The notes: a model not told the origin generated them from the sequence alone. A stretch of 64,000 bases of DNA from an uncultured Desulfobacterales bacterium (GCA_937998305.1 CALLDL010000004.1:7103-71102), one strand, 5' to 3'; numbered from the stretch's first letter, positions 26,803-47,177 are shown. Numbers and translations are program-made.

Positions 26803-27351
26803 ATGCCCGTTCAGTTGAAAGTCAAAGACATGATGATTCCCATAGGTGATTATGCAGTTACAACTGCCGATAAACCTCTGAAAGAAGCCGTTCCAGAGCT
26901 GATGAAAATCTATTGTCAGGTGGAAACTGGAAAATGTACGGAAGCAGGACACAGAACCAGCCTTGTCCTTGATGCTCAGGGTGAACTTGTGGGGATTCTC
27001 GATTTTAAAAGCATTTTAGAAGTGATGATTCCGGAAATTGCAGGAGGAATCAGCGGAAAATTGCATGCACTGGGTGTTTCAATCGCTTTTGCAGAAGCCG
27101 ATGCCCATGACATGGACCATGCAAAACACGGGTTTAGATCCAGAGTCAGACAGAACGCGCAAACCCATGTTAGAGACGTGATGCTTAAAATAAGAGGGAC
27201 CATAGATGCCGACGCCGGATTTCTGGATGCCCTTAAAATGATCTACCGCAACAAAATTACCATTTTACCCGTGTACGAAGAGGAGAAACTGGTGGGCGTT
27301 CTGCGGGATTCAGATCTGTTTCTGGTTGCAGCAAATGTTCTTATAGAATGA
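26803..27351 (+). CDS. CBS-domain pair protein
   Basis: 182 aa with two CBS-like repeats (..GELVGILDFKSIL.. and ..EKLVGVLRDSDL..). Confidence 0.7.
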   Translation: MPVQLKVKDMMIPIGDYAVTTADKPLKEAVPELMKIYCQVETGKCTEAGHRTSLVLDAQGELVGILDFKSILEVMIPEIAGGISGKLHALGVSIAFAEADAHDMDHAKHGFRSRVRQNAQTHVRDVMLKIRGTIDADAGFLDALKMIYRNKITILPVYEEEKLVGVLRDSDLFLVAANVLIE

Positions 27352-27383
27352 TAAATTTTGAAATGATACTTAAGGAGGAATAA

Positions 27384-27590
27384 ATGGCCGAACCTGAAGA
27401 GATGTATCAATGTCAGCAAGTTAGTTGTGGATATATTTATAACCCTGACAAGGGAGATCGAAAAGGAAAAATTCCCAAAGGGACCCAGTTTGCCGATTTG
27501 CCGGACGACTGGAAATGTCCGGTGTGCGGTGCTGGAAAGAAAATGTTCAAACCCCTTGCCGGGCCCGGCTCAGTTGCGGCAGGTGGTTAG
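27384..27590 (+). CDS. rubredoxin, type-2-like (C-x4-C first motif)
   Basis: [18 protein letters not shown]...DDWKCPVCG. The first Cys pair is spaced C-x4-C rather than C-x2-C, as reported for Desulfovibrio Rd-2. Confidence 0.75.
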
Positions 27591-27597
27591 AATTTGA

Positions 27598-27650
27598 TCA
27601 TACCTGAAGCGTCCTTGAAATGGATTTATTTCAAAGGACTAAACCATTAC
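27598..27650 (+). repeat. family D leader motif, copy D1
   Basis: CATACCTGAAGCGTCCTTGAAATGGATTTATTTCAAAGGACTAAACCATTAC. Ends 28 nt before the rubredoxin ATG. Confidence 0.75.
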
Positions 27651-27678
27651 ATAAATTCAATAAAAGAGGAGGGTTCAA

Positions 27679-27837
27679 ATGGACAAGTATGTATGCACGA
27701 TTTGCGGTTATGTTTATGATCCGGAACAAGGTGATCCTGACAATGGTGTTGCTCCGGGCACAAAATGGGGAGATGTGCCGGATGACTGGGAATGTCCGGT
27801 ATGCGGCGCATCAAAAGATGATTTTGAAAAAGAATAA
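27679..27837 (+). CDS. rub: rubredoxin (52 aa; below the ORF-track cutoff)
   Basis: Hand translation [53 protein letters not shown] textbook rubredoxin, with GAGGAGGG upstream. Confidence 0.9.
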
Positions 27838-27855
27838 TAAAAGGACGGGAGGAAG

Positions 27856-29046
27856 ATGAGACCTGTAGAAATAACAAAGGGAATCTATGATGTTGGCGTT
27901 ATTGATTGGAACATCAGGGATTTCCACGGATATTCGACTTATCGAGGTACCAGTTATAACGCATTTTTAATCGTCGATGAGAAAATCGCACTCATCGACA
28001 CCGTCAAGAAGAATTTTTCTGATCAACTAATTGATAATATTTCAAAAATTATCGATCCGAAAAAGATAGACTATGTCATCAGCAATCATACGGAAATGGA
28101 CCATTCCGGCGGGTTGCCACGGGTGATGCACAAAGTTGGTGAGGACAAGGCGCTTTATTGTTCAAAAATGGGCGCCAAAAATCTGGCCCGACACTTTCCT
28201 CAAAAGTGGAATTATCATGCGGTTGGTACCGGCGAGGAGTTGAGTCTGGGAAACCGGACCTTGACATTTCTCGAAACCCGAATGCTTCACTGGCCGGACA
28301 GTATGTTTACCTACCTGAAGGAAGACAAAATTCTCTTTTCCAGTGATGGTTTCGGACAGCATTATGCAGGGCATGAAAGATTCGATGATCAGATCGGAGA
28401 CGATATCATGCTTCACGCAAAAAAGTACTATGCTAATATTTTACTTCTTTATTCACCGTTGGTTCTAAAGCTTTTGGATACGGTTGCCCAACTGGGCCTT
28501 GAAATCGATATGATATGTCCGGATCACGGAATCATATGGAGAAAAGATCCGGGCAAGATCATCAATGCGTATGCAAAATGGGCCAAACAGGAGCAAGAGA
28601 AAAAAGCTGTCGTGGTCTACGACACCATGTGGCACAGCACTGAAGCCATGGCCGATGAGATTGCAGCGGGAATCGCCGGTGAGGGGGTATCGGTAAGACC
28701 GATACATATACGAAGCTCCCATCGCAGTGAGATTATGACGGAAATTCTCGATGCCGCGGCCATCGTTGTGGGATCGCCGACACTTAACAACCAATTGTTT
28801 CCCACGGTCAGTGATTTTCTGGTTTATATGAAAGGGCTCAAGCCTTTAAACAAAATCGGTGCCGCCTTTGGTTCTTACGGGTGGAGCGGTGAAGCGGTCA
28901 AGCTGATCAATAAAGAACTCGAAGCCATGAAATTCGACGTCATCGATCCCGGTATCAGAATTCAGTATGTTCCGGAAAAGAAGGGATTGGGAGCCTGTTT
29001 TGAACTGGGCAAAAAAATCGGACAGTCAATAAACAATAAAATATGA
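27856..29046 (+). CDS. roo: flavodiiron protein (rubredoxin:oxygen oxidoreductase / FprA)
   Basis: Metallo-beta-lactamase-like domain with HTEMDHSGG (H-x-E-x-D-H) plus a C-terminal flavodoxin domain (VVVYDTMWHSTEAMA). Confidence 0.92.
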   Translation: MRPVEITKGIYDVGVIDWNIRDFHGYSTYRGTSYNAFLIVDEKIALIDTVKKNFSDQLIDNISKIIDPKKIDYVISNHTEMDHSGGLPRVMHKVGEDKALYCSKMGAKNLARHFPQKWNYHAVGTGEELSLGNRTLTFLETRMLHWPDSMFTYLKEDKILFSSDGFGQHYAGHERFDDQIGDDIMLHAKKYYANILLLYSPLVLKLLDTVAQLGLEIDMICPDHGIIWRKDPGKIINAYAKWAKQEQEKKAVVVYDTMWHSTEAMADEIAAGIAGEGVSVRPIHIRSSHRSEIMTEILDAAAIVVGSPTLNNQLFPTVSDFLVYMKGLKPLNKIGAAFGSYGWSGEAVKLINKELEAMKFDVIDPGIRIQYVPEKKGLGACFELGKKIGQSINNKI

Positions 29047-32492: not shown

Positions 32493-33170
32493 ATGAGTAT
32501 GAATGTGGTGGAAAGGATAGATGAATTTGTTAAGGTCAGGAATGTGCTTGCAAGTGTTTTTGACAAAAGCGGTTTGGAAGCCTTCATACCGGAACTTATC
32601 CGGACAAATCCTGAGATAAAAATTTTTTCAACTGGCGGCACGTACAAAAAAATCAAAGAAATTCTCGGAGACACGGCGGATTCCTGCCTGACACAGGTTT
32701 CGGATTACACGGGTCAGCCGGAAACTCAGGGTGGTCTAGTGAAGACTCTCGATTTTAAGATATATCTCGGACTGCTAACCGAAACCTACAATGACGCCCA
32801 CAATGAAGATATCCGGCGAACAGGTGCTGTTCCCATAGATATGACCCTTTGCAACTTATATCCTTTTAAAGATACCATTTCAACAGCAGGGGTGACGGTT
32901 GAAATGGCTCGCGGTAATATAGATATTGGCGGGCCGTGCATGATAAGAGCGTCTGCAAAAAATTATATAAGGGTTGCATCGGTGGTCGATCCATCGGACT
33001 ATTCGGCGATTTTATCAGAAATGAATTCAAATAACGGCTCTATATCGCTGGGACTTCGCTACCGTCTTGCCCAAAAGGCATTTGACCACACAGCCGTTTA
33101 CGACCGGACCATCGCAGATTTCTTGGGCTCCAAGACAATTGATGAAGTGGCTGGGTGTTACACCTTATAA
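32493..33170 (+). CDS. purH: IMP cyclohydrolase (MGS-like N-terminal module of PurH) as a separate gene
   Basis: VLASVFDKSGL, FSTGGT, GNIDIGGPCMIRASAKN and the linker LAQKAFDHTAVYD all match the PurH N-terminal domain. The ORF stops where the AICARFT domain would begin. Confidence 0.8.
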   Translation: MSMNVVERIDEFVKVRNVLASVFDKSGLEAFIPELIRTNPEIKIFSTGGTYKKIKEILGDTADSCLTQVSDYTGQPETQGGLVKTLDFKIYLGLLTETYNDAHNEDIRRTGAVPIDMTLCNLYPFKDTISTAGVTVEMARGNIDIGGPCMIRASAKNYIRVASVVDPSDYSAILSEMNSNNGSISLGLRYRLAQKAFDHTAVYDRTIADFLGSKTIDEVAGCYTL

Positions 33171-33478: not shown

Positions 33479-34729
33479 ATGGCTGAAGATTTAAAGAAAA
33501 TGTATCGGACAATAATGGACGATCACTTTCCACCTGGGATGGAGATTAGTTTTGTGGATCAGGATAAAAGACAAACCCTTTTTTATGAAAAAGTGGCCTG
33601 GACCATCGATAACATACAAAAAGGGCTCAGATACGGTGAAAATCCGGGTCAGGAAGCCGCACTTTACAAACTGATCAATGGAAATCTGGCTTTAGGAGAA
33701 AGCGAATCGATTCAGCCGGGACAGCATCTGGCTTCAGACATTGAGCTTTTGCAATCCGGCAAACATCCCGGCAAAACCAACCTGACCGATGCAGACAACT
33801 CTATGAACATTTTAAGATATTTTGTGGATAAACCCACAGCTGTCATTGTCAAGCACAACAATCCCTGTGGGGTTGCCCGCTCTGATACATTGGTAGATGC
33901 GTATCTAAAGGCAAACATGGCAGACAGGGTGGCGGCATTTGGAGGATGTATCGCCGTAAACCGGGCTGTAGATCAGGCAACGGCGGAAGCCATCACCGAA
34001 CAATACGCTGAAGTCGTTGTTGCACCCGATTTTGAAGACGGTGTAATGGACATCTTTGCAAAGAAAAAAAACCTCAGGGTGATACGTATCGGTAATATCA
34101 ACAGGCTGCAGAACTTTGTCGGGCAAAGATGTGTGGAATTCAAGAGCCTGATTGACGGCGGTATCATCGCCCAGTGGTCATTTGTGCCGGCAGCCCGGAC
34201 AAAGGCAGATCTAAAACTTGCCGCATGCGATTATAAAGGTAAGCCGTATCAGGTTAACCGAGAGCCCACAGAACAAGAATACAACAACCTGCTCTTTGGA
34301 TGGCTTGTGGAATCCGGCATTACATCCAATTCCGTCATTTATGTCAAAGACGAGGTTACCGTCGGCATCGGTACCGGTGAACAGGACCGGGTGGGTGTTG
34401 CCGAAATTGCAAGGGACAAGGCCTACCGAAAGCTGGCGGACCGTTACTGCTTTGAAATGCATAATATTTCCTATAATGATTTGAAAGATGAAGATAAAAA
34501 AGCAGAAATTGATGCTAAAGTGGCCGATGAAAAAGGCGGACTGATCGGCTCCGCCATGGTCAGTGACGCCTTTTTCCCTTTTAGAGACGGTATTGATGTC
34601 GGCCTGAGAGAGGGGATTACTTCAGTGATTCAACCGGGTGGATCTGAAAATGACTACCAGTCCATCGAGGCCTGTAATGAAGTCGGTGCGACAATGGTCT
34701 ATACAGGGCAGAGAAGTTTCAAACACTAA
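33479..34729 (+). CDS. purH: AICAR formyltransferase (C-terminal module of PurH) as a separate gene
   Basis: LRYGENPGQEAALY, VKHNNPCGVA and the C-terminal QPGGSENDYQ...VYTGQRSFKH. Own RBS AAGGAGAAA. Confidence 0.88.
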   Translation: MAEDLKKMYRTIMDDHFPPGMEISFVDQDKRQTLFYEKVAWTIDNIQKGLRYGENPGQEAALYKLINGNLALGESESIQPGQHLASDIELLQSGKHPGKTNLTDADNSMNILRYFVDKPTAVIVKHNNPCGVARSDTLVDAYLKANMADRVAAFGGCIAVNRAVDQATAEAITEQYAEVVVAPDFEDGVMDIFAKKKNLRVIRIGNINRLQNFVGQRCVEFKSLIDGGIIAQWSFVPAARTKADLKLAACDYKGKPYQVNREPTEQEYNNLLFGWLVESGITSNSVIYVKDEVTVGIGTGEQDRVGVAEIARDKAYRKLADRYCFEMHNISYNDLKDEDKKAEIDAKVADEKGGLIGSAMVSDAFFPFRDGIDVGLREGITSVIQPGGSENDYQSIEACNEVGATMVYTGQRSFKH

Positions 34730-35078: not shown

Positions 35079-36080
35079 TCAAGGTCTTGTGCTGTTCAGC
35101 CCCACAAAGGTACCACCGTTTCTCTGGCATAAAGCGCGCATAAGAGTGGCAAATCGTTCGCCGGTGTTGCCGCGTTGGTTCGTTTGTTCCATAACGACCG
35201 GAAAACCAACGGCATGGATCCGGACCCGACGAGAACCGTCTTTTTCTGTCTTGTTAATTCTGTCCACTTCATTGATGACCGGCTGGATAGCGGAACCGCT
35301 GAATTCATCACCGAATACATAAAGGCTTATTTTTTTATCTTTTGAATAGAACATATTGATCGCGGCGGTAATTCCTTCTACCGGGCTGCTGTTGCTGAAA
35401 GAGTTCCAAGTGCGCAGGGCTGAGATGATGGCCCTGCGCCGGGCCGGGGTGTCCGGTATCCATTTCCCGGCATACTGGGAAAACAGGAAATTTCCCATAT
35501 CGTTCATTATCTGGATGCCTTTGACTTTCGGATAGATTTCGAGCGTCTCCCGCATTTTTTTCTGGACCAGGCTCCAGGCATTTCGCTGCATGCTTCCGGA
35601 TGTGTCGATAATAAAAACGATGTACTCACTGTCCACGGGAATACCACCTACCGAACGGGTTATTTTTTTAGGAAGGCTTTTATAAAGCCGCTTCATTTCT
35701 TCGGTCAGCTCCTGACGTGCAAGGGCCAGTTTGCCTTCAATAATATTTTGAACCATAGCATCGTCTTTGGATCCTGCAAATCGGCCTTTAATCGTCGACA
35801 GATCGCCCTGGAGCCGGGCAAGCTTTTTCTTATCTTTTGACAGCTGAACCTTTTTAGCCGTCAATTCGCGGTTCAGGATTCGGGTGTCACCTTGGATTTC
35901 AAACAGTTCGTTTTCCAGGCGAACAATCTCAGCCTGCATGTTTTCTTTGATTTCTTCAATGACCACCGGTTCAGCAAATTTGGACAGTACAAACAACAGA
36001 ATAATAGCACCGAATCCGCAGCAGATACAGTCAAGAAAGGAAAGGCTGAATATATCTATGTCCCGTCTGTGTTTTTTCAT
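35079..36080 (-). CDS. ExbD/TolR-like TM helix + coiled coil + VWA-domain protein (paralogue 2)
   Basis: N-terminus KKHRRDIDIFSLSFLDCICCGFGAIILLF (basic N-terminus and an Asp inside the TM). Heptad-rich region, then VWA with the MIDAS motif FIIDTSGSM. Confidence 0.75.
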   Translation of the reverse strand: MKKHRRDIDIFSLSFLDCICCGFGAIILLFVLSKFAEPVVIEEIKENMQAEIVRLENELFEIQGDTRILNRELTAKKVQLSKDKKKLARLQGDLSTIKGRFAGSKDDAMVQNIIEGKLALARQELTEEMKRLYKSLPKKITRSVGGIPVDSEYIVFIIDTSGSMQRNAWSLVQKKMRETLEIYPKVKGIQIMNDMGNFLFSQYAGKWIPDTPARRRAIISALRTWNSFSNSSPVEGITAAINMFYSKDKKISLYVFGDEFSGSAIQPVINEVDRINKTEKDGSRRVRIHAVGFPVVMEQTNQRGNTGERFATLMRALCQRNGGTFVGLNSTRP

Positions 36081-36111
36081 AGGGTTAAATCCATGTCATC
36101 CGGCGTTGTCC

Positions 36112-37203
36112 TTACGGCCAGTTTTTCGAGGGACAGAAAAAAGATCCCTTGGTTTTCTTGGCCAAACGCCAATAGACGTCAGCAGCCATGGGATCCCCCT
36201 CCATGGGATAAAGTATGATGTTCACCGGCACCCTTTTAGGCAGTTGCGAAATTGCTTCGTTAAACAGACTTACCCGTTTTTTACTGGAAACCCTTGTTCG
36301 CCATGGCTTGCTGCTTCCCATGGTCGGCAAACCATCGGTAAGTAAAAATATGTTGTCCGGGGTCGGTTTCATCTCGTTGATCGATTTGATCGCGCTTATC
36401 AGACTGGTTCCTTTTTCCGGAACCAGCCGGTACAAACTTTCTGCCGAAAGGTTTAATGGGTCCATCGCGCCGGCATCCAGCCAGGTTCCTTTTGAATGTT
36501 CAAGCAAAGGGCGTGCGGTTTCGTTAAATATGTATATTTGAAATTGACTGGTTGAAGGAAGCTGGGTGATCAGCCAGTTCATGGTTTTCACTGCCTGTTG
36601 CCATTTGGGAGCGCTTATTTTCTGAACATTTTTTAAATTGCGCCGGCGGATAATCCCGACAACGGTTTCATCCAGCATACTGGCTGAGACGTCCAGGAGA
36701 ATAAAGATCCGCTTTCCCCCCATTTTTAAATCCGTAAGGTACTGGCGATCTCCCTGCCCTGGAAACGGGCGCAATCTGGAACCTATGTCATCCTGTGTTT
36801 TGGCCCCGGCTTTCAACCGCCGAAGCTCCTCTTCAAGAGATCTTAAATCATCTTTTAACTTATTGATGTGTGTTTTGCTTGCAAGGGTGTCCTTGTCTCT
36901 ATCCGCCAGTTCAACCTTTTTTTCATTGAGTATTTTTATAATTTCGCGGGATCGTCCCTGTGTGGTCACCAGGTCGGCATCAATTTCAGAAAGGATGTTG
37001 CGAGACTCAACCAGTTTTTTTTTATCGTCCAAAACCTGCTGTTCTATTTTGTTCACTTGAGCACGCAAATCCGACGTTACGGCGTCCCGTCGATGAGCGC
37101 TTTTGGCGTTTACCACGACAAATAAAAGAATAATCGCCCCTAACCCGCAGCAGATGCAGTCAATGAAAGATAAGCTGAATACATTTAATTTTCTACGTTT
37201 CAT
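36112..37203 (-). CDS. ExbD/TolR-like TM helix + coiled coil + VWA-domain protein (paralogue 1)
   Basis: Start set at MKRRKLNVFSLSFIDCICCGLGAIILLF (ATG at 37203, 11-nt overlap with the upstream gene). Coiled coil, then VWA with MIDAS ILLDVSASM and LLTDGLPT. Confidence 0.75.
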   Translation of the reverse strand: MKRRKLNVFSLSFIDCICCGLGAIILLFVVVNAKSAHRRDAVTSDLRAQVNKIEQQVLDDKKKLVESRNILSEIDADLVTTQGRSREIIKILNEKKVELADRDKDTLASKTHINKLKDDLRSLEEELRRLKAGAKTQDDIGSRLRPFPGQGDRQYLTDLKMGGKRIFILLDVSASMLDETVVGIIRRRNLKNVQKISAPKWQQAVKTMNWLITQLPSTSQFQIYIFNETARPLLEHSKGTWLDAGAMDPLNLSAESLYRLVPEKGTSLISAIKSINEMKPTPDNIFLLTDGLPTMGSSKPWRTRVSSKKRVSLFNEAISQLPKRVPVNIILYPMEGDPMAADVYWRLAKKTKGSFFCPSKNWP

Positions 37204-38608
37204 CGGCTTCCAAGCAGGCAATGAGTCGTATGGTTTCTCGGGATGTCCCAAGGCGAACGATTTGGCCAAGTTCGAGTATAGCACTCCCGTTGATCTGTCG
37301 ATTATCTACAAATGTTCCCTGACTGCTGAAGTCCGTTAGAACAATACGGTTATCTTCGCGCTGAACCGTACAATGCTTTTTGGAAACATCGGATGATTTC
37401 GCTTCAACACGAATGCCTTTTCCAAAAGGGTAATGATCGCAGCCGATGATGAGAGGTTTTTCGGAGACGGGATAGGCCACATCGCGATAGAGTAAATGTG
37501 AGGGGTTTATCGTATGGGAGGTTTGATAAGAAATAGCTCGGGAAGTTGTAGATTCTGTCTGCTGCCAGGGACGGCTGGTAAAAAAAGATGCCCCATTTTT
37601 AAAGTGTCGATCGGTCAACGGGTCCCGGAGTTTTAAAACTCCCAGAGCACCGGCTCCGGGTTCGAGTTCAATGATTTTGCAGTTTTCTATTTCTAAAAGT
37701 TTATCCTTTAATCCCGGCAGACAGGCGACTCGATGGGTCGTTTGAAGGACGGTCAAGAGATTGTTTTTACCATGGTCATCTCGCATTTTTTCAATGAATC
37801 GGCAAATTTCATCATATATCTTCTCGCTCTTTTGAAACAATACATCACGCAGAAGAGTAATACGATAAGAATTTTTTCCATGGGATAATTCAAATAAAAA
37901 GGAGGGTTGGTTTTTAAAAATATCAAGGGCAGATGCCAGGCGGTTATAAAGTTCCTGTTCCGTTGCGGCCTGATGAAGGGGATCGAATCTTGTGGCATGA
38001 ACAAATTCTTCAGCAATGGTTTCCACCCAGCTCCGGTATAGCTGTTCCAGGCTAATTTCCTCGAATGTCACCGAGTTTTTCGCTGTTAGATATTCACCCT
38101 GATGAAGATAAGTGATTTCGAATCGGTGCAAATGGATGTCCAGGTGCAACAGCATTGCATTTGGATAAGCGTGATATGATGCGGCTATGGGCAGGGATAC
38201 AAAACCTTTAACGGGTATGGAAAGCTCCTTGGCCATACCCAGAATAAGTCCCAGCTGTTCTTTGCTGTAAAAGTTGGGTACAGCGATGATCATCTCATCG
38301 CCATACTGTTTAACGATTTCCCAGACGTGAAATAGATGGGTGTATGCGATTTCAGCATGATTTTGCGCATGTCGGTTCTTCTGTTTTAAAGGTTCCGTAT
38401 TCAATTGATCCCAGAATCTGTTGATGACTTGAAGTGGAAAGAGGTGTGCCTTGTCTGATGCCGGTTTTCCGACGAGCAGACGCTCTTTTTCCGGTATGGC
38501 GAATCCGGGACTTTCTTGTTCCTGTCCGTCAACGGTTAACAATCTTATTGGATTGTCCCCGGCAACCAGGATTCCGGAATCGGCGAGTTCAAGCCCTAAA
38601 AGTGTCAT
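37193..38608 (-). CDS. degenerate Hsp70/actin-fold protein with a C-terminal divergent FHA domain
   Basis: Hsp70-like order of segments (LGLELADSG; AVPNFYSKEQLGLILGMAKELSIPVKGFVSLPIAAS; LHLDIHLHRFE) with the nucleotide-binding glycines lost. C-terminus has VSKKH..LTDFSSQGTFVDN, FHA-like. Confidence 0.65.
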   Translation of the reverse strand: MTLLGLELADSGILVAGDNPIRLLTVDGQEQESPGFAIPEKERLLVGKPASDKAHLFPLQVINRFWDQLNTEPLKQKNRHAQNHAEIAYTHLFHVWEIVKQYGDEMIIAVPNFYSKEQLGLILGMAKELSIPVKGFVSLPIAASYHAYPNAMLLHLDIHLHRFEITYLHQGEYLTAKNSVTFEEISLEQLYRSWVETIAEEFVHATRFDPLHQAATEQELYNRLASALDIFKNQPSFLFELSHGKNSYRITLLRDVLFQKSEKIYDEICRFIEKMRDDHGKNNLLTVLQTTHRVACLPGLKDKLLEIENCKIIELEPGAGALGVLKLRDPLTDRHFKNGASFFTSRPWQQTESTTSRAISYQTSHTINPSHLLYRDVAYPVSEKPLIIGCDHYPFGKGIRVEAKSSDVSKKHCTVQREDNRIVLTDFSSQGTFVDNRQINGSAILELGQIVRLGTSRETIRLIACLEADET

Positions 38609-38721
38609 TTGTTCACCCTGTCAAATGGATTTTTTGGTATAAATTCATGGTATATGGTCACGAGGAGGCACACCCCGTGACCACCGTATCGTGTCGAAAG
38701 ATGCCATTTCTGGATGGACAC

Positions 38722-39525
38722 TCATTGTGTATGCAAATGCCTGGTCAATCTCTCTTCACAATATGCTTCTGTTTCCAAGACATATCTTTCCTGAAGCAGC
38801 TGCAGCTGGTGCAGCATAAACATGAGAACAATGCTGATAAGAAGCGCGATCAAAGTTGAGTTAAACGCTACCCCCAGGCTGCGGGTAACACCGAAAATTT
38901 CTCCTTCAATGGCCTGATGCGCCAGCCCAAGTGCATCTCCAATGCCTCGTACCGTGCCGATAAATCCGATGGAGGGAATGGCCCAGGCAATATATCTAAT
39001 CATGGACAATTCAGATTCCAATCGTTCACCTTCGGCCGAACAGTAGGCATGGGTTGCATCTGCGACATCCTGAATATTTTTTGTTGAACTAAATCTTTGC
39101 AAACCGGCCAGCAATGCTCTGGGAAGCAACCCGTTTTGTTGATACGTCGGCAGTGCTTGAATTTCCCGGGACAGTTCCCGGGTATCTTCAGGCAATATAC
39201 GAACCCCTTCGGCTAAAGGAATCAAACCCTGTTGTAACAGCGAACGGTGTCTTATGGTGGTAACAGCCTTAAACGCCATTATGGCCAGCGCCCAAAACAT
39301 GAGAACAAAACAGGCTTCTTGCTCATAATCGCGGATCAACACATAGGCAGAACGTTCGGTTGTTTGCGTTTTGTCTTTTTGGAGCATCTCAGCCTGACGG
39401 GTCAGAATGGCGTCGGCATTTGGACGAATGATGCCGACGTAAACGGCATGAACAAAAATGATAATCAGAATCAGAGAGAAAAGCTGGTAAATAAACTCCA
39501 TGGATATCGGTAATGTTTTTTTCAT
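38722..39525 (-). CDS. MotA/TolQ/ExbB-family proton-channel protein
   Basis: 267 aa with three TM segments. AIPSIGFIGTVRGIGDAL fits the G..GTV.GI signature, followed by GVAFNSTLIALLISIVLMF. Confidence 0.8.
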   Translation of the reverse strand: MKKTLPISMEFIYQLFSLILIIIFVHAVYVGIIRPNADAILTRQAEMLQKDKTQTTERSAYVLIRDYEQEACFVLMFWALAIMAFKAVTTIRHRSLLQQGLIPLAEGVRILPEDTRELSREIQALPTYQQNGLLPRALLAGLQRFSSTKNIQDVADATHAYCSAEGERLESELSMIRYIAWAIPSIGFIGTVRGIGDALGLAHQAIEGEIFGVTRSLGVAFNSTLIALLISIVLMFMLHQLQLLQERYVLETEAYCEERLTRHLHTQ

Positions 39526-39570
39526 AGTGAATTCTCGATGTTGATTTTACTTGCTAATAAGTAAATTAGA

Positions 39571-39788
39571 TACTCGACATACCCTTACCAAAGGAAATGT
39601 AACCGAAGCCTTCTCACAAGTGCCTAAAGTTTGAAGTGAATTAAAGTGCCTAAAGTTGAGGTAGCGCTAGCGCGCTGTCATTAAAATATAATTGGCTAAA
39701 AATTTCCTCAACTTTATCTCACTTTAGCCACTATTAACTATTTCTGTTTTAATATCAAAGTCAGCATATCAGTAAAAAATGTCGAGTA
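39571..39788. repeat. family E inverted-repeat element inside the cluster
   Basis: 10-bp termini TACTCGACAT / ATGTCGAGTA. Internal direct repeat AAGTGCCTAAAGTT x2 pairs with CCTCAACTTTATCTCACTTTAGCCAC. Central palindrome AGCGCTAGCGCGCT. Confidence 0.6.
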
Positions 39789-39862
39789 GGATTTGTACTT
39801 CTTAGTAAAAAAGTTTTCCGGTCTGCAACGCGTTGTTGGCGACGGATTCGAAACTAAAAGTG

Positions 39863-40195
39863 TCAGATATCGTATGGAAAATCAACACCCTGATCTGCCG
39901 GAATCGTTTCTGACGGAACGAACGGTTTTACCGGTTTTGTCTTTTTGGGAACATTTTTCTCTTGTGTCAACGTCTTTGGTTTGTTTGTATCTTTATGGGT
40001 TTTTGAGGCATTATCAACGGAAACATTGTTCGACGGTTTTTTGGGGTCATTTTGGGCAAAATAGGTTGATCCTGAATGTTGTCCGAGCGGTACGTTTAAT
40101 TCATAAAAGAATCCTGTCGGCACAGTTCCTGCCCATGTCGCTCCAAAAAGACATGTCCCCAATAAAGCAATTGCTATAAAAAATCTGTTTACCAT
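39863..40195 (-). CDS. small secreted/anchored Lys/Pro-rich protein
   Basis: Start at MVNRFFIAIALLGTCLFGATWA (signal or anchor), 2 nt after the upstream stop. K/P-rich spacer KPKTLTQEKNVPKKTKPVKPFVP. C-terminus ADQGVDFPYDI. Confidence 0.55.
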   Translation of the reverse strand: MVNRFFIAIALLGTCLFGATWAGTVPTGFFYELNVPLGQHSGSTYFAQNDPKKPSNNVSVDNASKTHKDTNKPKTLTQEKNVPKKTKPVKPFVPSETIPADQGVDFPYDI

Positions 40196-40197
40196 GG

Positions 40198-42309
40198 TCA
40201 TTTCAAATATCTGCAAACCCGAAAACCGACATCCTCACGTTTGTCATCACCGTAACTGCGATAGGCCAGTCTCAAGGTGTTGATACTTCCATGTTTCCAG
40301 CTGGATCCTCTGATCACATGGTGTTTACCGTTTTTGGGTCCGGTTGGGTCCACATATGTTTTTTCGGGATCATAACTGTAAATTGAATAAAAATCGTGAC
40401 ACCATTCTGCTACGTTACCGCCCATATCATACAACCCCAGGGTATTGGATTTAAATTTTGCCGGCGGAGCTGTTGTTACATATTCGTCATTGTAACCTTC
40501 GAGAACGGTGGGAAGCAAGTTTTTTGCGGATTGATCCAAATAATTTCCGGATAGTTGAACGGGAGGAAATTTGTTTCCCCATGGATATTTCGAAAATGCA
40601 TGTTTACCGGTAAACCGGGCACAGTACTCCCACTCTGCTTCGGTAGGCAGCCTGTAACCGGTATTTAACGGCTCGACGGCAGTCAACGTGTTCCCTTTTT
40701 TAACATAAGCCGGTGGCAGTGACGCTTTGGCGCTGAGCCAGTTGCAGAACCGGGCAGCCTGTTCCCAGGTGACTCGAACCGCGGGCTGGGCAGAATTGTT
40801 CAGACTCTGTGATTGAAAAAAGCCTGAATTGTGTTTGGCCAAAAATTCCTTGAATGCGTGGTTGGATACTTCTTTAAGGCCCATGTAAAACGGCCGTTTT
40901 AGTATGACCTTTCTAAGGGTTTCATTGGATCTGTGACCCTGTTCTCTGCGTGAAGATCCCATGGTGTAGGACCCGGGCTGGATTAATTTCAATCTGTAGC
41001 CTGTTTGAGTTGTAATCACCAGCGGTTCAGTTTCTTTGGACGCCCCCTTTTTCTTGAGCGCAACTTTCAATTGTTTTGGAAACCCGGGTTGGGGGGTGAT
41101 GCGGATTCCATAGGGATGAAAGCCTTTTTTATTGAATTCCAGTTTGTGTTCCACGGCGATCAGATTTAATTTTTTCGGAACAATGCCCCATGATTTGCCG
41201 TCTATTATCAGTTTGGTGTCGGGCGGTTCAACCGACAGGTGGACGATACCTCGTTTGGGTTTTAAATTCACATTGAGCTGTTTTGGTGCAGCCGATACAA
41301 CTTGTACGTTACGGTTTGTTTTTTTATAACCGGCCTTTGAAATTTGAACAACATGATGTTTGTCCGGAGAAAGATCGAGTGTCAGCGGTGTCTGACCGAC
41401 AAAAGCCCCGTCAATTATGATATTGGCTCCGGCGGGTTTGGTTTTGATCGTCAATTTGCCGTCTGCCGGCTGAAGCCGTACGTCTTTTATTTCTTGGGGT
41501 TCATTCAATTTTACATCCAGATGGTGTTTCCATGTTTTAAAACGATCGGCACTGATCTCAAGAAGATAAGACCCAGGCGACAGTTGAGTGTGTAAAGGGG
41601 TTTTCCCGAAGGATTTTCCGTCGATCAAAACATTTGCGTCCAAAGGCACGGAACTGACAATGATATCCGACCAACCCGGAAGCAGCGCCAGGTTAAACTC
41701 CTGAAATTTGTCACAGCCATGCACGGTAACATCGGTCTGAAAGTTTTGATAATTCTCGGCACCAATTTCAATTTTGTGCAGACCCGGCAGTATTTCAAGA
41801 TTCTCTATGGGGGTGTTTCCAACCACAGTACCATCGATATATACTTGTGCGCCTAAAATGTTACTTTCTGTATCACCCGAATCATAGGCGCGAATCATCA
41901 GGCGACCGGGACGTTCTTGCATCTTTAGACGCAGGTTCTGCCGTTTTTCATCGCTGACCCAAAATGTATGGTCAAGGGGTAAAAAACATTCTCTGAGAGC
42001 CTCCATCGTGTATTTTCCGGGACGCATCAAGTAATAGTTCCCGATTTTCGGTGTCAGGATACTCCCTGAAAACACAATACGTTCCGGAACCGGCTCGATG
42101 TCTATCACTACCTGACGGGCAGTGAAGACAAACCAGGTCGAGAGACAAAGAAAAATCAGGACGATTCCAATAAGAACGCCGACAACCCATTTAAAAATGA
42201 TAAACGGCTTTGGTCTTTTAGATGGCGGCTTGGACCGAAAGGATATCGGTTCGATTTTTATAGGCGTTTTCTCTCCACCGTTGTTTTGGATTGTGTCTGT
42301 CAATGTCAC
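40198..42309 (-). CDS. membrane-anchored PEGA-repeat protein with a C-terminal FGE-sulfatase (SUMF1-like) domain
   Basis: One TM (FIIFKWVVGVLIGIVLIFLCL), 4-5 PEGA-like repeats (e.g. VLIDGKSFGKTPL..LSPGSYLLEISADRFK), then RVTWEQAARFCNWLS, GYRLPTEAEWEY, GLYDMGGNVAEWC and IRGSSW. Confidence 0.85.
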   Translation of the reverse strand: MTLTDTIQNNGGEKTPIKIEPISFRSKPPSKRPKPFIIFKWVVGVLIGIVLIFLCLSTWFVFTARQVVIDIEPVPERIVFSGSILTPKIGNYYLMRPGKYTMEALRECFLPLDHTFWVSDEKRQNLRLKMQERPGRLMIRAYDSGDTESNILGAQVYIDGTVVGNTPIENLEILPGLHKIEIGAENYQNFQTDVTVHGCDKFQEFNLALLPGWSDIIVSSVPLDANVLIDGKSFGKTPLHTQLSPGSYLLEISADRFKTWKHHLDVKLNEPQEIKDVRLQPADGKLTIKTKPAGANIIIDGAFVGQTPLTLDLSPDKHHVVQISKAGYKKTNRNVQVVSAAPKQLNVNLKPKRGIVHLSVEPPDTKLIIDGKSWGIVPKKLNLIAVEHKLEFNKKGFHPYGIRITPQPGFPKQLKVALKKKGASKETEPLVITTQTGYRLKLIQPGSYTMGSSRREQGHRSNETLRKVILKRPFYMGLKEVSNHAFKEFLAKHNSGFFQSQSLNNSAQPAVRVTWEQAARFCNWLSAKASLPPAYVKKGNTLTAVEPLNTGYRLPTEAEWEYCARFTGKHAFSKYPWGNKFPPVQLSGNYLDQSAKNLLPTVLEGYNDEYVTTAPPAKFKSNTLGLYDMGGNVAEWCHDFYSIYSYDPEKTYVDPTGPKNGKHHVIRGSSWKHGSINTLRLAYRSYGDDKREDVGFRVCRYLK

Positions 42310-43934
42310 ACCTTAATGTTACAAATTATGGATACGCGCAACGATGTCTGGCCGGGTTTCACGGTGATTTTCAGCCGGACATCCTGGTATCCGTTGCGTG
42401 AGCCGACCACGGTGTACGTGCCGGGTCTTAGCGATAATTCGCGAAAGGTAAATTTGCCGAGTTTTCCGATTTTATAAACGGCGATTTCCGTAAGGTTATC
42501 AGACTCGATTATCACTTTAACAGGAGTTCCGGCGATATCCACCAAGGTTTTTAGCTCGTTTAATCGGGCGTTTAAATGTGTGCCCCTTTGTTCCAGTTTC
42601 TCGGCCTCCTCGATCAAACGTATCGCATTTTCAAGCTGCCGGTCCGATTCCATGACGTCGGGTTTTTCAAGAAAAAATGCAATTCGTTTAGCAACCTGAA
42701 TGTGTTCCAAAGAGCGTTTTTTACCCTGGACGGCAAAACTGATATTAGGATCAATTTTAAGAACTGTCAGATAAGATTTAAGGGCCTGTTCCCAATTTTC
42801 AGCCTGTTCGGCAGACATTGATTTTTGGCGAAGTTTTTCAATTTTATCTAACCGGATGGCCTCGTCAACCTGCAATAAAGCGCTTTTTACTTCACGTGAT
42901 TGGGGTTGGAAAGATTTTGCCTTTAAAAGCGTTGTTCTGGCGAGTTGATAATGGCCATTGTGATATGCCGTCAGCCCATCCGACATGAGTTTCTGAAACT
43001 GTTCGTCGACGATTTTTTCTTTCATCCGGATTAAGCCGTTTTGAGCTTCCCTGGATTCAGGGTCCAATTGCAGTGCCCTCTGAAAATCGGCATGTGCAAA
43101 AGCAAACCGATTATTTTCTTCATGGTTTTTCCCCGATTTTACCAGACGGTTCACTTCATCAAGCTTCTTGGCCCGTTCCAAATTCCGCCGGGCGGATTCA
43201 TCTGACGGTTGAATCTTTAAAGCCGTAGAAAATTTTTGTTGGGCAATGACACTGTCACCATTTTCAAGAGCCTTCTGACCTTCGTCTGTCAGTTTTTGAA
43301 ACACGGTTCCGGTGTTACTGATCAACTCTTTTGCTATATTGGCGGCTTGAGCATATTTTTCAGCTGCAGCAGAAAACGAACGATCCAAAAGCAGCCGGTC
43401 TCCTTCTTCGCTGAGGGCTGTCATGGTTTCATATTCTTCACCACCCCATACGGAACCCTCTTTTTCTTCTATCTCATTTTTAAGTTTCAATAACTTTGCC
43501 AATTCCTTGTCTGCCGTTTCTTTTTCCCGTTCAAATTTGGCAGTGTCGACGGTTTGCATTGATTTAATCGCTGGTTGTCGCTCTAGGGGAACGAAAACCG
43601 GTTCTGTCGTGGTGCCGACCCGCTCTTTGTTTGTCTTGGGAACATTCAAATCCTGTTTTTTTAAAATCCCGGTTTCCGAAGATTCTGTATGTTCCGTGTT
43701 TTTAGCCAGATTCACCGGATGTTTTGATAAATGGCGAATAAGAAAAAGACCCCCTGTCACCATTGAAGTAAGAATGATGAGAAGCAATAAAACGGTGATA
43801 GAGGTTATTCGAAAAGAGCGATCCGAGTCAGGCTGGTCATTCCCTTGGTGCACCTCAAGGGGCGTGATTATTTCCACGCCAAAATCTGAAGCCTCTTTAC
43901 CTTGAGGAGGTTGAGTGGGTGTGTCGGACGGCAT
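42306..43934 (-). CDS. membrane-anchored TPR-repeat protein with a C-terminal PEGA-like domain
   Basis: TM ITVLLLLIILTSMVTGGLFLI and several TPR-like A..F..AL...P repeats. The C-terminus LRPGTYTVVGSRNGYQDVRLKITV is PEGA-like. 4-nt overlap with the downstream gene. Confidence 0.75.
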   Translation of the reverse strand: MPSDTPTQPPQGKEASDFGVEIITPLEVHQGNDQPDSDRSFRITSITVLLLLIILTSMVTGGLFLIRHLSKHPVNLAKNTEHTESSETGILKKQDLNVPKTNKERVGTTTEPVFVPLERQPAIKSMQTVDTAKFEREKETADKELAKLLKLKNEIEEKEGSVWGGEEYETMTALSEEGDRLLLDRSFSAAAEKYAQAANIAKELISNTGTVFQKLTDEGQKALENGDSVIAQQKFSTALKIQPSDESARRNLERAKKLDEVNRLVKSGKNHEENNRFAFAHADFQRALQLDPESREAQNGLIRMKEKIVDEQFQKLMSDGLTAYHNGHYQLARTTLLKAKSFQPQSREVKSALLQVDEAIRLDKIEKLRQKSMSAEQAENWEQALKSYLTVLKIDPNISFAVQGKKRSLEHIQVAKRIAFFLEKPDVMESDRQLENAIRLIEEAEKLEQRGTHLNARLNELKTLVDIAGTPVKVIIESDNLTEIAVYKIGKLGKFTFRELSLRPGTYTVVGSRNGYQDVRLKITVKPGQTSLRVSIICNIKV

Positions 43935-44015
43935 AGTTGAACGTCTCGGAAATTCTACAACCTAATGAAATTATAGATTAAATTTTGAGGCTTGAGCGCT
44001 TGCCTCGAATATAGA

Positions 44016-44166
44016 ATAATGGAATGGTGGAATACTGGAAGGTTGGTTTTTAAAAGGATATTATCTGTTTTTAGTTTTATCGTTATCACAAATTTTACCA
44101 TTAACCCAACATTGCATTATCCCAGAATCCATTATTCCATAATTCCAGCATTCCACCATTCCAATT
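44016..44166. repeat. family F inverted-repeat element
   Basis: Arms ATAATGGAATGGTGGAATACTGGAA (44016-44040) and TTCCAGCATTCCACCATTCCAATT (44143-44166). Lies in the gap between two cluster genes. Confidence 0.6.
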
Positions 44167-44203
44167 GTGAGCGAAGCGAACTAAGTTCATTTGATGCTCG
44201 ATT

Positions 44204-45436
44204 TTATTCTGAGCCTTCGGATGTTGTCTTTTCTTTATGTTCCGATGAGATATCCGGATCAAAGCCGGTTTCTGTGATATATATCTGTCGCAGCAATTCG
44301 CGCCAGTGTTTAAATTGTTCTTCGGCGGTTCCGGTCAGCTCATACTGCTTGCCTTCGAATTCCATGACAACGGGCTGCATTTCACTGCCAAACGATTCGC
44401 TCAACTCCTTGATTGCTGCCGAGTGGATTTCAGCTTCTTTAGTAACATTAAACCCGTTGACGATCACCTGGCCGCCGATTAAAATCATACTCATCTGAAG
44501 CGCGCCGGTGTTGTTGACTTCTCCCGCATTCAGTGCAATAGCACCTGCCAGTAGCAACATGCCGACCAACTTTTGATTTAAGGCGTTACGTTTAATCTCC
44601 TTGATAGCCTTAATTTCTTCATAGTTGAGCTTGCGCCAGTTCTCATAAGAAGACCAAATATTTGCATAATATTCTTCATAATACTCATTCAAGGTGTCCA
44701 CATACATGTATTCCCGCTCCCGTATCTTTAGCAGACGGATCATTATGGTGTCTTCATCGGCAGGCAGGCGATTGACGGCGATGAGATTTTTTTTATCTTT
44801 GGTCAGATATCCATTGTAGACGGATGGCGCAAAGTCTTGTGCAAATTTTAATTTCGAGACGGTACGGATGTTCTTGATCTCTTCAGGGGGCAGCTTCACG
44901 AGATAAGTGGCGATATCATTGGAGATGGTATTGTATAGATCCTGATACACATCTTTTTCTCCGGCTCGATTTCCCGAATAGAATGCCAGAGAGGCTTCGG
45001 ATTTATATTTTTTGCTGAACCAGGTTTTCCGGGTCGCATCCGTCACATCGATTTGAAGTATCAAGTGCTCTCCGTTGGATTCAAGAACTTTACCTTTGAC
45101 CAGAACGTCGATACTTTCCGTTTTACCTGGAAGGGCACGCACTGCGCCCCAATAGCTGCTTTGCTGCATGGTGCTTTTCAAATGATACGGCATGAAATGA
45201 CGTTCTGCTTTTCTGATTTCTTGACTGGTATGTTCTTCTTTGGCTTGCTCTTCTGTAATTTTGTCGGATTCAAAAACCAGGATGCCGACATCGAGCAGTT
45301 GCTCTTCTAAGATTTCTTCTTTGGCTTTCATTATTGTCGTAGGACCGACCTTTTGAGCATTAAAGGTGGCACATCCTGTGAACAAAATTAAAATCAAAAT
45401 CATTAATAAGAGGTTATGATGAACGCTAAATCTCAT
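44204..45436 (-). CDS. lipoprotein of unknown function with a C-terminal Gly-rich hydrophobic segment
   Basis: Start set at MRFSVHHNLLLMILILILFTGC (lipobox LFTGC). Late segment LVGMLLLAGAIALNAGEVNNTGALQMSMILIGGQVIVNG. Confidence 0.6.
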   Translation of the reverse strand: MRFSVHHNLLLMILILILFTGCATFNAQKVGPTTIMKAKEEILEEQLLDVGILVFESDKITEEQAKEEHTSQEIRKAERHFMPYHLKSTMQQSSYWGAVRALPGKTESIDVLVKGKVLESNGEHLILQIDVTDATRKTWFSKKYKSEASLAFYSGNRAGEKDVYQDLYNTISNDIATYLVKLPPEEIKNIRTVSKLKFAQDFAPSVYNGYLTKDKKNLIAVNRLPADEDTIMIRLLKIREREYMYVDTLNEYYEEYYANIWSSYENWRKLNYEEIKAIKEIKRNALNQKLVGMLLLAGAIALNAGEVNNTGALQMSMILIGGQVIVNGFNVTKEAEIHSAAIKELSESFGSEMQPVVMEFEGKQYELTGTAEEQFKHWRELLRQIYITETGFDPDISSEHKEKTTSEGSE

Positions 45437-45458
45437 CTTAGCACACACTTTAATGGCC

Positions 45459-46352
45459 TTACTTGCGCACATTTTTTTTATATTGTTCATATTCTTTCCA
45501 GAGCTTTTCCTTAAGTTCAGGATCGGATTCTTTTTCTGCCGCTTCGCGAAGCTGTCTGGCCACGATGTCATCATCTTCAGGGTCGTAACGATTTTTAGGA
45601 TGTCGTTGGGAACCTTCCGCTCCTTCCCGGGATTTGTCTTTATCAGTCAATGTGGTGTCATCCCTGCCTTCTTCAGAGTTATTTTCCTTTCCGGCTTCTA
45701 GGCCGCTTTTTTCTTTTTCGGTTTCTTTCGGTTCTTCGGATGAATCCTGACGGGAATCAGCGGTTTCTGCTTTTGAATCGGTATCTATCTCGATGCCCTT
45801 GTCACGCAGGCGTTGTGCCGCAGCTGCAGCCTCTTGGGCCAGATCCTGCAGTTTTTCTGATGATTTTGTCTGGATCAAATCCAATTCCTCGAGCAGCATC
45901 TCATCGAACTCGGCCAGGGAACGGTCGAGTTGGCGGTCCAAGACGGTTACTTTGTCAACTACCTGTTCCTCGGGAATGGAAGGGTCCAGCATCGCGGAAG
46001 TATCATCAGAAGATGATGCCCCGTAAGTTGCTTTTCGGGTATTATATTTAGCGCTAAGTGCTTCCAATTTATCCACTTTTTCCCGGTTTTCAGCAACCAT
46101 GGCCTGCACTCGAATTAAGTACGTATTATAATCTTTTATGATATCCGGTAATATATCCTCGGATTTTTTTAACTTTTCCAGCTCAAAAGAGATGCGTTCC
46201 TCGGTGGCCATACTGATACGTAAATCCTTGCGTGCCGATTCAAGGGCCGATTCAATTTTTTGCATCGAGGCAGCATATAGGCTGGTAGACAGCACAAGCA
46301 ATAACACTTTGGCCAGAATAACTTTCCACCATTTGGGATCGTTTATGATCAT
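45459..46352 (-). CDS. secreted coiled-coil / acidic low-complexity protein
   Basis: Signal-like VILAKVLLLVLSTSLYA, heptad-rich middle and an acidic S/E/K tract. Conserved-looking C-terminus DDDIVARQLREAAEKESDPELKEKLWKEYEQYKK. Confidence 0.55.
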   Translation of the reverse strand: MIINDPKWWKVILAKVLLLVLSTSLYAASMQKIESALESARKDLRISMATEERISFELEKLKKSEDILPDIIKDYNTYLIRVQAMVAENREKVDKLEALSAKYNTRKATYGASSSDDTSAMLDPSIPEEQVVDKVTVLDRQLDRSLAEFDEMLLEELDLIQTKSSEKLQDLAQEAAAAAQRLRDKGIEIDTDSKAETADSRQDSSEEPKETEKEKSGLEAGKENNSEEGRDDTTLTDKDKSREGAEGSQRHPKNRYDPEDDDIVARQLREAAEKESDPELKEKLWKEYEQYKKNVRK

Positions 46353-47177
46353 TATTGAAACCCGTTCGTTTTGAAATCATAAAATGTATCTGAAAATAAT
46401 AAAAAATTACATTTGCATTTGCTAAATATAAGAAATTTGAGGAGTTGTGTCAAGATGCGCGAGGTTTTGCCTCGGGTAGTGGATCAATTTGGGTAAAAAA
46501 GGATAAGTATATAATAGTGAGGTATTGGTAAGTAAACACAAAGTTTGAATCCATCAAGCTTGGGGCTTACTCAATTAGATATCACAAGGGAAAAAGAATA
46601 AAATTAGAATATAGAGATTGCATCCCGCATGATTAAAAAGCTTTTCATTTTATCAATTTTCATTAATATCATATTATCGTCATTTTTTGCGGTATATTCA
46701 TATAAAAGGGGAGGAATTTCATATATTTCAAAAAGAGTATTCTCAAGTGAGACAAAAGCAAATAATTCACCCAAACCGTTGTTAAAAAAATACTATAATG
46801 TAGATTTCTGACTTAAACTTTCAATTCAGACCATCCTATTATGCTTTTAAATTTGCCGAAAAATTTCACTTCGAAACCTTGAAAAACTGCTGAGACTGTC
46901 GAAAAAGTTTAATTAATGCATTTTTGTGAAATTTGCATATAATAATATCAATCACTAAAAAATCTACTAAGAACCCTTTTTGATTTATTGTGAATTTTGG
47001 GATATAGGTCAATATGGGACGATGATGATATGTTAACTTTTTCGTCTTCTCAAAATAAATTCAGCACAACCGGAGGCTGAGAAGAAGGGAAAATTGACTT
47101 AAAAGTGAATAATTAATAATCAAGATGCAACCCTGGATGCTTCTCAAGGACTATTTAAATGAAAAGGGGACAGTCAA

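Follow-up and report, generated by a model that had tools for sequence, protein, structure and literature searches.

A conserved nine-gene cluster predicted to encode a trans-envelope machine with paired VWA proteins on a TolQ-like channel

In a window of 64,000 nucleotides from an uncultured Desulfobacterales bacterium (GCA_937998305.1 CALLDL010000004.1:7103-71102; "the window" is this whole stretch), nine co-directional open reading frames (ORFs) on the minus strand, here called g1 to g9 in the order of transcription, span positions 35079-46352 (Table 1). We conclude that the nine genes form a real, widespread and self-contained module, conserved far beyond chance. Judging from the domains and residues of their products, we also consider it rather probable that these products make up a single trans-envelope machine, self-contained and based on a motor of the 5:2 MotA/ExbB/TolQ type that is driven by the proton motive force (PMF) and in which the paralogues g8 and g9 would supply an axle ending in VWA heads. 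An earlier annotation, made from the sequence alone (the initial annotation), had assigned domains to the nine genes that our ORF, Pfam and NCBIfam analyses (and Foldseek for the Hsp70-like protein) recover, and had read the cluster as a PMF-energised envelope machine that matches no named system. The machine fits all the sequence tests that we ran, but its novelty does not hold: pairs of VWA proteins with an aspartate in the transmembrane (TM) helix, encoded beside a tolQ-like gene, were described in 2025 (PMC12204202). Since this idea of the motor core has already been published in silico, the cluster is not a new kind of system.

The conservation of the cluster was assessed in 60 loci from a scan of one genome per species and 80 loci from a search of metagenomes that started from distant g9 representatives, the genes being mapped by tblastn and family hidden Markov models (HMMs). 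Of the related loci, 55 extend 9 kb or more upstream of g9 (the long loci of Table 1), and gene order and strand are identical in all 55, so that the co-occurrence on which the initial annotation depended is borne out, and g6 is present in 86 of 88 loci. The flanking genes differ beyond close relatives and are not conserved. Carriers are marine and sediment Desulfobacterales and Gammaproteobacteria and include Desulfobacterales, Desulfatiglandales and Porticoccaceae; the cultured Porticoccus litoralis has all nine genes, in order. Across the loci, identity is 60-97% for g6 and 50-96% for g9. With E<=1e-30 and clustering at 50% identity, the g9 family falls into 341 clusters; a cluster look-up showed the distant representatives to be almost all metagenome proteins.

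Three contigs labelled Nitrospinaceae, Thermodesulfovibrionia or Nitrospinia also bear the cluster (L001, accession CAXMTB010000016.1, L018 and L029). Identity between L001 and the window is 85-96%, L001 has flanking genes in common with it, and its equally close relatives are all labelled Desulfobacterales; we suggest that the three are mis-binned or mislabelled contigs of metagenome-assembled genomes.

The assignment of g6 to the MotA/TolQ/ExbB channels stands. PF01618 (MotA_ExbB) matches g6 with 51.7 bits at a cut-off of 22.9, whereas the score against the TolQ equivalog TIGR02796, 25.2 bits, lies under the cut-off of 221. T191 and T224 are invariant in 59 of 59 sequences; in the alignment with E. 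coli TolQ they fall in GTVWGI and IATAIG, motifs that we take to hold the pore residues Thr145 and Thr178, so that both pore threonines are kept. A pentamer of g6 is predicted to be the motor ring. As had been claimed, Pfam and NCBIfam searches of the cluster and its flanks found no TolR, ExbD, MotB, TonB or TolA domain.

Both g8 and g9 have a single, N-terminal TM segment, and the two helices are near-identical: FSLSF(I/L)DCICCG(L/F)GAIILLF. The aspartate never varies, being present in 57/57 sequences of g8, 48/48 of g9 and 17/17 distant g9 representatives, down to 32% identity; C21, G24 and A25 of g9 are likewise invariant in the 48 loci and the 17 distant representatives. The aspartate sits close to the N-terminus of the helix, like that of TolR, ExbD and MotB, behind an N-tail that is strongly basic (+4) in both proteins, and no His or SHLS motif occurs in any column of either helix. 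At the other end of the polypeptides, g8 matches the Pfam families VWA_3 (2.3e-6, 28.2 bits at a cut-off of 27) and VWA_2 (5e-5). The metal-ion-dependent adhesion site (MIDAS) of g9, D159-x-S161-x-S163...S231...D258, is invariant in the 48 loci and the 17 distant representatives (32-50% identity), and its residues are conserved in g8 also, in agreement with the intact MIDAS motifs reported for both proteins. As an observation apart, three cysteines follow the aspartate directly (D-C-I-C-C-G), one of them invariant even in distant relatives, an unusual feature in a helix of the TolR/ExbD/MotB type.

Between helix and head lies a stalk of fixed length, and g8 and g9 align with each other over the TM helix and the stalk only. 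The TM aspartate is separated from the first MIDAS aspartate by 156 residues in 98 of 119 loci for g8 and by 142-143 residues in 94 of 126 loci for g9, a difference of 14 residues or two heptads; this spacing is fixed although conservation in both proteins is lowest in the stalk. A sharp hydrophobic period of 3.5 residues runs through both stalks (power 1.17 and 1.31, where shuffled sequences reach about 0.5 at the 95th percentile), and there is no power at 3.6; this points to a single heptad register that continues without a break for 110-125 residues. Taken together, the fixed spacing and the 3.5-residue periodicity lead us to infer a heterodimeric coiled coil of about 16-18 nm with staggered heads, whose fixed lengths suggest a periplasmic ruler.

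A family with these properties has been published. Section 8 and Fig. 4c-d of PMC12204202 (Mol Biol Evol 2025) report a second vWA family, the TM-tethered "TPH-vWA" (seed Idiomarina loihiensis), whose genes lie in heterologous pairs tight beside a tolQ-like gene, without tolR or exbD and lacking the SHLS motif; the hosts named are Proteobacteria and Verrucomicrobia. AlphaFold 3 (AF3) places the conserved TPH-vWA aspartate within a ring of threonines, the pair forming a dimer inside a TolQ-like pentamer (PMC12204202). The account is in silico only and one paragraph long, gives TPH-vWA no name, function or experiment, and makes no mention in its text of Hsp70-like/FHA, PEGA-FGE, TPR, lipoprotein, g1 or g5 genes, of stalk lengths or of a tail motif; a literature search for the full domain combination returned no other paper. 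Compared with the published description, the cluster shows each defining feature of the TPH-vWA family that we were able to test: a heterologous pair of proteins with a single TM helix, a conserved aspartate in it, no SHLS motif or His, and a C-terminal VWA domain, together with an adjoining tolQ-like gene that has the conserved pore threonines and no tolR, exbD or motB nearby. One difference is that in most loci studied here the tolQ-like gene is followed by g7 and only then by the VWA genes.

The initial annotation called g7 a degenerate Hsp70-FHA protein, and the structural evidence agrees. Residues 1-345 have no Pfam match, PF00012 included, but the AlphaFold2 (AF2) model (predicted local distance difference test, pLDDT, 83) retrieves isolated Hsp70 nucleotide-binding domains (NBDs) from the PDB with Foldseek (E ~1e-17, target-normalised TM-score 0.7-0.8, root-mean-square deviation 3.4-4.3 A); the g7 family profile matches the NBD of yeast SSB1 marginally (E 0.012). 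In the SSB1 alignment the phosphate-2 loop DLGGGTFD is D157-I-H-L-H161-R-x-E164 in g7, and INEPTAA is VSLPIAA, the catalytic Glu being replaced by Leu. Because the glycine loops are lost and the catalytic Glu is replaced, we regard the Hsp70-fold domain as degenerate, and it is probably a non-hydrolysing pseudo-ATPase. The place of the Hsp70 substrate-binding domain is taken by a C-terminal FHA domain (PF00498, 3e-9). Canonical FHA domains have Gly-Arg, Ser-x-x-His and Asn-Gly; in g7, S409 and H412 are kept, the Arg after G389 is not conserved (C390) and the Asn is Q430. In the gammaproteobacterial versions of the cluster (L059, L061, L062 and about 10-19 metagenome loci), g7 is shorter (~433 amino acids) and no FHA domain was detected in it.

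The presence of g7 varies together with a short motif in the cytoplasmic tails of g3 and g4. These N-terminal tails are variable outside the motif, which reads I23-x-P25-x-x-V28 in g3 (I23 and P25 invariant in 26/26 loci) and I19-x-P21-x-x-F24 in g4 (39-41 of 43 loci). From 11 loci g7 is absent (L080, L082, L089, L093, L095, L099, L102, L105, L124, L132 and L139); g6 abuts g8 there and both VWA genes are kept. None of the tails recoverable from these loci has the I-x-P motif (0/7 for g3, 0/4 for g4), as against 26 of 42 g3 tails and 51 of 64 g4 tails in loci with g7. In the PilM-PilN pair, a cytoplasmic protein of the actin/Hsp70 fold is joined to a bitopic partner that has a short conserved N-terminal cytoplasmic peptide, and by analogy the co-variation suggests that g7 binds the tails of g3 and g4. 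The analogy applies to g7 with g3 and g4 only; there is no sequence relationship, and the fold of g7 is like that of the Hsp70 NBD rather than that of PilM or FtsA. An invariant Thr in the g3 tail was considered as an FHA ligand and rejected, the Thr not being conserved.

The remaining partners are exported or bitopic. Pfam finds TPR_2 (4e-11) and CarboxypepD_reg (4.6e-5) in g3, whose TM segment covers residues 39-69 and whose PDB sequence matches are generic TPR proteins only. In g4 it finds PEGA (1e-45, 3 repeats) and FGE-sulfatase (2.3e-43). The best NCBIfam match of g4 is GldK, at 132 bits under a cut-off of 350; its match to PorK (E 2e-17) is close to its best FGE matches (4e-19 to 6e-18), and in the alignment with S. 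coelicolor FGE (6muj/2q17) g4 has a gap or Ile in place of both catalytic Cys residues. On these alignments the FGE domain of g4 is predicted to be non-catalytic and PorK-like; the protein has a TM anchor and no lipobox. The other three have no recognisable domain: neither g1 nor g2 has a Pfam, NCBIfam or PDB sequence match, and g5 has no match in Pfam or NCBIfam. The lipobox residue Cys22 of g2 is invariant in 30 homologues; 2263 homologues were found, most of them 410 amino acids long among the matches listed. The single hydrophobic segment of g1 is N-terminal, and its C-terminal motif DDIVARQLREAAE..DP.L..KLW.EY..YK is invariant in 27 loci and occurs also in the Porticoccus homologue, a lipoprotein. 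The C-terminus of g5, PSE.I..D..V.FP.DI-COOH, is conserved in 28 loci and in an 81-amino-acid Porticoccus homologue. Both peptides persist from delta-type to gamma-type clusters, and they are candidate ligands of the MIDAS heads or of the TPR domain. In the gammaproteobacterial versions, g1 is a lipoprotein.

Table 1. Features of the cluster, with the number of long loci (of 55) in which each gene was found (aa, amino acids; nt, nucleotides)
Feature	Coordinates	Strand	Long loci	Description
sigma-70-like promoter candidate	46425..46453	-		best match, TTGACA-17-TATATT; 11/12 consensus match only; 73 nt upstream of g1
g1	45459..46352	-	50/55	secreted acidic protein, 297 aa; signal peptide, coiled-coil/low-complexity body, conserved C-terminal helix
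g2	44204..45436	-	52/55	lipoprotein, 410 aa; lipobox LFTGC; Gly-rich hydrophobic stretch near residue 290-330
g3	42306..43934	-	54/55	bitopic inner-membrane protein; cytoplasmic tail, one TM, periplasmic coiled coil, TPR and C-terminal PEGA/CarboxypepD_reg-like beta domain
g4	40198..42309	-	54/55	bitopic inner-membrane protein; cytoplasmic tail, one TM, at least 3 PEGA, C-terminal FGE-sulfatase (C-type-lectin-like) domain
g5	39863..40195	-	42/55 (detection limited by short protein)	small exported Pro/Lys-rich protein, 110 aa; conserved C-terminal peptide
non-coding g5-g6 gap	39526..39862	-		337 nt; contains direct repeat and inverted copy
g6	38722..39525	-	54/55	channel subunit of the MotA/TolQ/ExbB family, 267 aa; four hydrophobic segments, predicted MotA-like topology
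g7	37193..38608	-	49/55	cytoplasmic protein, 471 aa; Hsp70-NBD/actin-fold domain (residues 1-345) and FHA (~370-465)
g8	36112..37203	-	55/55	VWA paralogue 1, 363 aa; short basic N-tail, TM with invariant Asp, heptad stalk, VWA with DxSxS..T..D MIDAS motif
g9	35079..36080	-	55/55	VWA paralogue 2, 333 aa; TM with invariant D17, heptad stalk, VWA with MIDAS

In the machine that we propose, five copies of g6 would form a proton-conducting ring, and one g8 with one g9 would form a heterodimeric axle whose TM aspartates lie next to the invariant threonine ring of g6. The AF3 model of PMC12204202, obtained independently and of matching architecture, speaks for such a core. Where TolR, ExbD and MotB have their periplasmic domain, each axle subunit would run on as an unbroken coiled coil of fixed length (~16-18 nm by the heptad count), capped by a VWA domain whose MIDAS is intact. 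One stalk is longer than the other by exactly two heptads, so that the heads may be staggered near the peptidoglycan or the outer membrane, where they would bind an acidic ligand through a metal ion. Candidates for ligand or scaffold are the C-terminal peptide of g5, the acidic C-terminal helix of g1, the lipoprotein g2, and the PorK-like FGE/PEGA protein g4 together with the TPR protein g3. On the cytoplasmic side, g7 may dock the I-x-P-x-x-hydrophobic tails of g3 and g4, as PilM holds PilN, which would tie the two bitopic periplasmic proteins to the motor. Stoichiometry, rotation, binding partners and physiological output are all what we infer for this machine; as to the output, our best guess, made with low confidence, is that the PMF drives the tethering or remodelling of some structure in the outer membrane or on the cell surface. 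A more specific claim, that this is a distinct and widespread trans-envelope machine unlike Tol-Pal, Ton, Mot, Agl-Glt and T9SS, in which a fixed-length heterodimeric axle with two staggered MIDAS heads acts on a PorK-like FGE/PEGA-TPR scaffold while an Hsp70-fold pseudo-ATPase clamps I-x-P tails to the motor, is put forward tentatively and with less assurance than the motor itself.

Several results weigh against the proposed machine. The ExbD/TolR family PF02472 matches neither the whole g8 and g9 proteins (E<=0.01) nor their isolated N-terminal 63 residues (E<=10), so that the "ExbD-like" TM segments of the initial annotation keep that name for their invariant aspartate, as a functional resemblance and not as family membership. 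The VWA match of g9 falls below the Pfam cut-off. The AF2 model of g2 is unusable (pLDDT 39; the alignment is shallow, its homologues being all 74-92% identical), which leaves the output end of the machine conjectural. The g7-less loci may be a single clade and reflect a single evolutionary event, for which reason the co-variation of motif and g7 is suggestive only. Finally, the genes had been described as tightly packed, and the three junctions quoted in support are correct (4-nt overlap at 42306-42309 between g3 and g4, 11-nt overlap at 37193-37203 between g7 and g8, 2-nt gap at 40196-40197 between g4 and g5), but wider gaps separate g2 from g3 (269 nt), g5 from g6 (337 nt) and g6 from g7 (113 nt), and with three gaps of this size a single operon or transcript is no more than possible.

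The same motor could also work with MotAB-like mechanics, the VWA heads being a static anchor, comparable to the OmpA-like domain of MotB, on a peptidoglycan or outer-membrane partner (g1, g2 or g5), while a rotating g6 drives the TM helices of g3 and g4 as TolA/TonB-like transducers, or drives g7. The four hydrophobic segments of g6 suggest a MotA-like topology, the layout of g3 resembles that of TolA (a tail in the cytoplasm, a single TM, a long helical region and a C-terminal globular domain), the cytoplasmic motif linked to g7 is common to g3 and g4, and a stalk of fixed length fits a spacer or anchor as well as an arm. The TM helices of g3 and g4, however, have no His or SHLS-type motif, and the published AF3 reading prefers the VWA pair as the transducer (PMC12204202); we hold these mechanics to be possible but unlikely. 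It is quite improbable that the cluster is a Bat-like membrane complex in which the VWA proteins are metal-dependent chaperones or scaffolds and the MotA-like protein is merely an associated channel, without mechanical coupling. The Bat system (BatA-E, MoxR, DUF58) likewise has two membrane VWA proteins and TPR proteins, and g3 gives a weak BatC match, but at 19 bits this is far under the cut-off of 175; no MoxR AAA+ or DUF58 was found in the cluster, its flanks or the 29 other window ORFs scanned, and the cluster has a proton channel, a TM aspartate and coiled-coil stalks. A Bat-like complex would leave unexplained the invariant TM aspartate, the threonine ring and the strict co-occurrence with g6.

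Two further readings were weighed. One makes it a membrane signalling module whose VWA domains are cytoplasmic and bound by the FHA domain of g7, like ArnA (FHA) and ArnB (VWA), which regulate the archaellum of Sulfolobus. The FHA gene does lie directly upstream of both VWA genes, ArnA is among the weak PDB matches of the FHA domain (5a8i, E 0.18), and in g8 basic residues flank the TM helix on both sides; against these stand the N-tails of +4 and the acidic stretch after the helix of g9, which favour an N-in topology, the lack of a kinase or phosphatase gene in the cluster, the departures of the g7 FHA domain from the canonical Arg and Asn, and the loci that keep both VWA genes in the absence of g7. 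We judge such a module very improbable. The other, which we can hardly credit, would place the cluster among anti-phage or conflict systems, either with the vWA ternary type or as a MotAB defence motor like Zorya. Zorya uses a MotAB-like motor, which is a point in its favour. The conflict systems of PMC7159879 do contain VWA, FHA, Hsp70-like and FGE-sulfatase domains; the cluster, by contrast, has none of the MoxR or GTPase core, kinase/PP2C and variable effectors of the vWA ternary and MoxR-vWA conflict systems described there. PADLOC returned coiled-coil noise only, g9 gave no tblastn match against plasmids, and the proteins are highly conserved, not diversifying, and encoded in fixed order next to housekeeping genes. 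With MoxR, DUF58, kinase and PP2C all not found, the initial annotation was right to set aside both Bat and the vWA ternary conflict systems.

Nor does the cluster map cleanly to Bat, Agl/Glt, T9SS or Tol/Ton, since defining features of each are missing. With Tol-Pal and Ton it has in common a PF01618 channel, two pore threonines, a partner-helix aspartate near the cytoplasmic end and an envelope-spanning layout, and its lipoprotein and TPR/coiled-coil protein are comparable to Pal and CpoB of Tol-Pal; it lacks, however, the TolR/ExbD periplasmic domain, TolA/TonB, TolB and an OmpA-like Pal, and its axle differs in being a predicted heterodimer with coiled-coil VWA arms. The PorL-PorM-PorK-PorN (GldKLMN) motor of the type IX secretion system (T9SS) and gliding is alike in its 5:2-type architecture, its long periplasmic arm and an adjoining non-catalytic protein of the FGE-sulfatase fold, but g4 scores under the GldK cut-off and is TM-anchored rather than a lipoprotein, no GldL, GldM or GldN match was found, and the motor of the cluster belongs to the MotA/ExbB family. 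In the Agl-Glt machinery of Myxococcus, as in the cluster, a TolQ-like protein (AglR) goes with a heteromeric TolR-like pair (AglQ/AglS), a cytoplasmic FHA domain (GltG) is predicted to dock the motor, and TPR proteins and a VWA protein (the adhesin CglB) are present; no Glt homologue was detected in the cluster, however, whose VWA domains are fused to the axle and do not form an outer-membrane adhesin, and whose FHA domain is on a soluble Hsp70-like protein.

What appears to be undescribed so far is the set of partner genes, g1-g5 and g7, and with it the complete conserved nine-gene architecture: the Hsp70-NBD-fold pseudo-ATPase g7 with its partly degenerate FHA domain, the non-catalytic PorK-like FGE domain of g4 and the I-x-P-x-x-hydrophobic tail motif of g3 and g4. 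The fixed, offset lengths of the stalks also appear to be new. If true, the accessory architecture and the coupling of the tail motif to g7 would be new biology beyond the in silico description of 2025. The MotA/ExbB/TolQ class includes the motors behind flagella, nutrient import, upkeep of the outer membrane, gliding and type IX secretion, and each new motor output has taught how proton flow becomes work across the periplasm. The present system should be simple to study because it has no separate protein of the TonB or TolA type, the predicted output domain being part of the axle itself, and it supplies testable parts: the list of nine genes, the invariant Asp, Thr and MIDAS residues, the fixed lengths of the stalks, candidate ligands (the C-termini of g5 and g1) and a candidate docking motif.

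The gene starts in Table 1 include three refined ones, ATG 45436 for g2 (which gives 410 amino acids), ATG 40195 for g5 and ATG 37203 for g8. In the gap between g5 and g6, the minus strand carries a perfect 14-nt direct repeat, AACTTTAGGCACTT, at 39618-39631 and 39644-39657 (26 nt apart), a third, inverted copy at 39721-39732 and, in addition, an 11-bp perfect inverted repeat, with 0.01 matches expected by chance. The repeats were not found in the equivalent gaps of 12 related loci, the lengths of which vary, and they may be an operator, an internal promoter or an inserted element. A sigma-54-like reading was dropped because the repeat is not conserved among relatives. Rfam and tRNA scans of the window gave no matches.

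Some neighbours of the cluster are particular to one lineage. In the gammaproteobacterial versions, two extra co-directional genes (~217 and ~225 amino acids) with no assigned function follow g9 directly, and an M48 peptidase gene lies downstream in 12 loci; Porticoccus has a TPR/TonB_C-like gene immediately upstream. These extra conserved neighbours were considered as cluster members and set aside as lineage-specific only, and the gene downstream in some delta-type loci is ATP sulfurylase and unrelated to the cluster. In the window itself, the flanks hold purH-like, prepilin peptidase, guaA-like, DUF1846 and oxidoreductase genes, and the remainder is ordinary chromosomal metabolism. The purH-like gene (MGS domain and AICARFT/IMPCHase) is split into two plus-strand ORFs in different frames, 32493-33170 and 33479-34729, whose homologous parts lie ~400 nt from each other. 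In the close relatives L001, L004 and L034 the two pieces are likewise separate, and the split may be natural or due to an insertion rather than an assembly error. Farther upstream in the window, at 22986-29046 on the plus strand, subunits I and II of cytochrome bd oxidase, a fusion of FMN-reductase and low-molecular-weight phosphatase, and a flavodiiron-like protein (ODP and flavodoxin) make up an oxygen-defence set typical of sulfate reducers and unrelated to the cluster.

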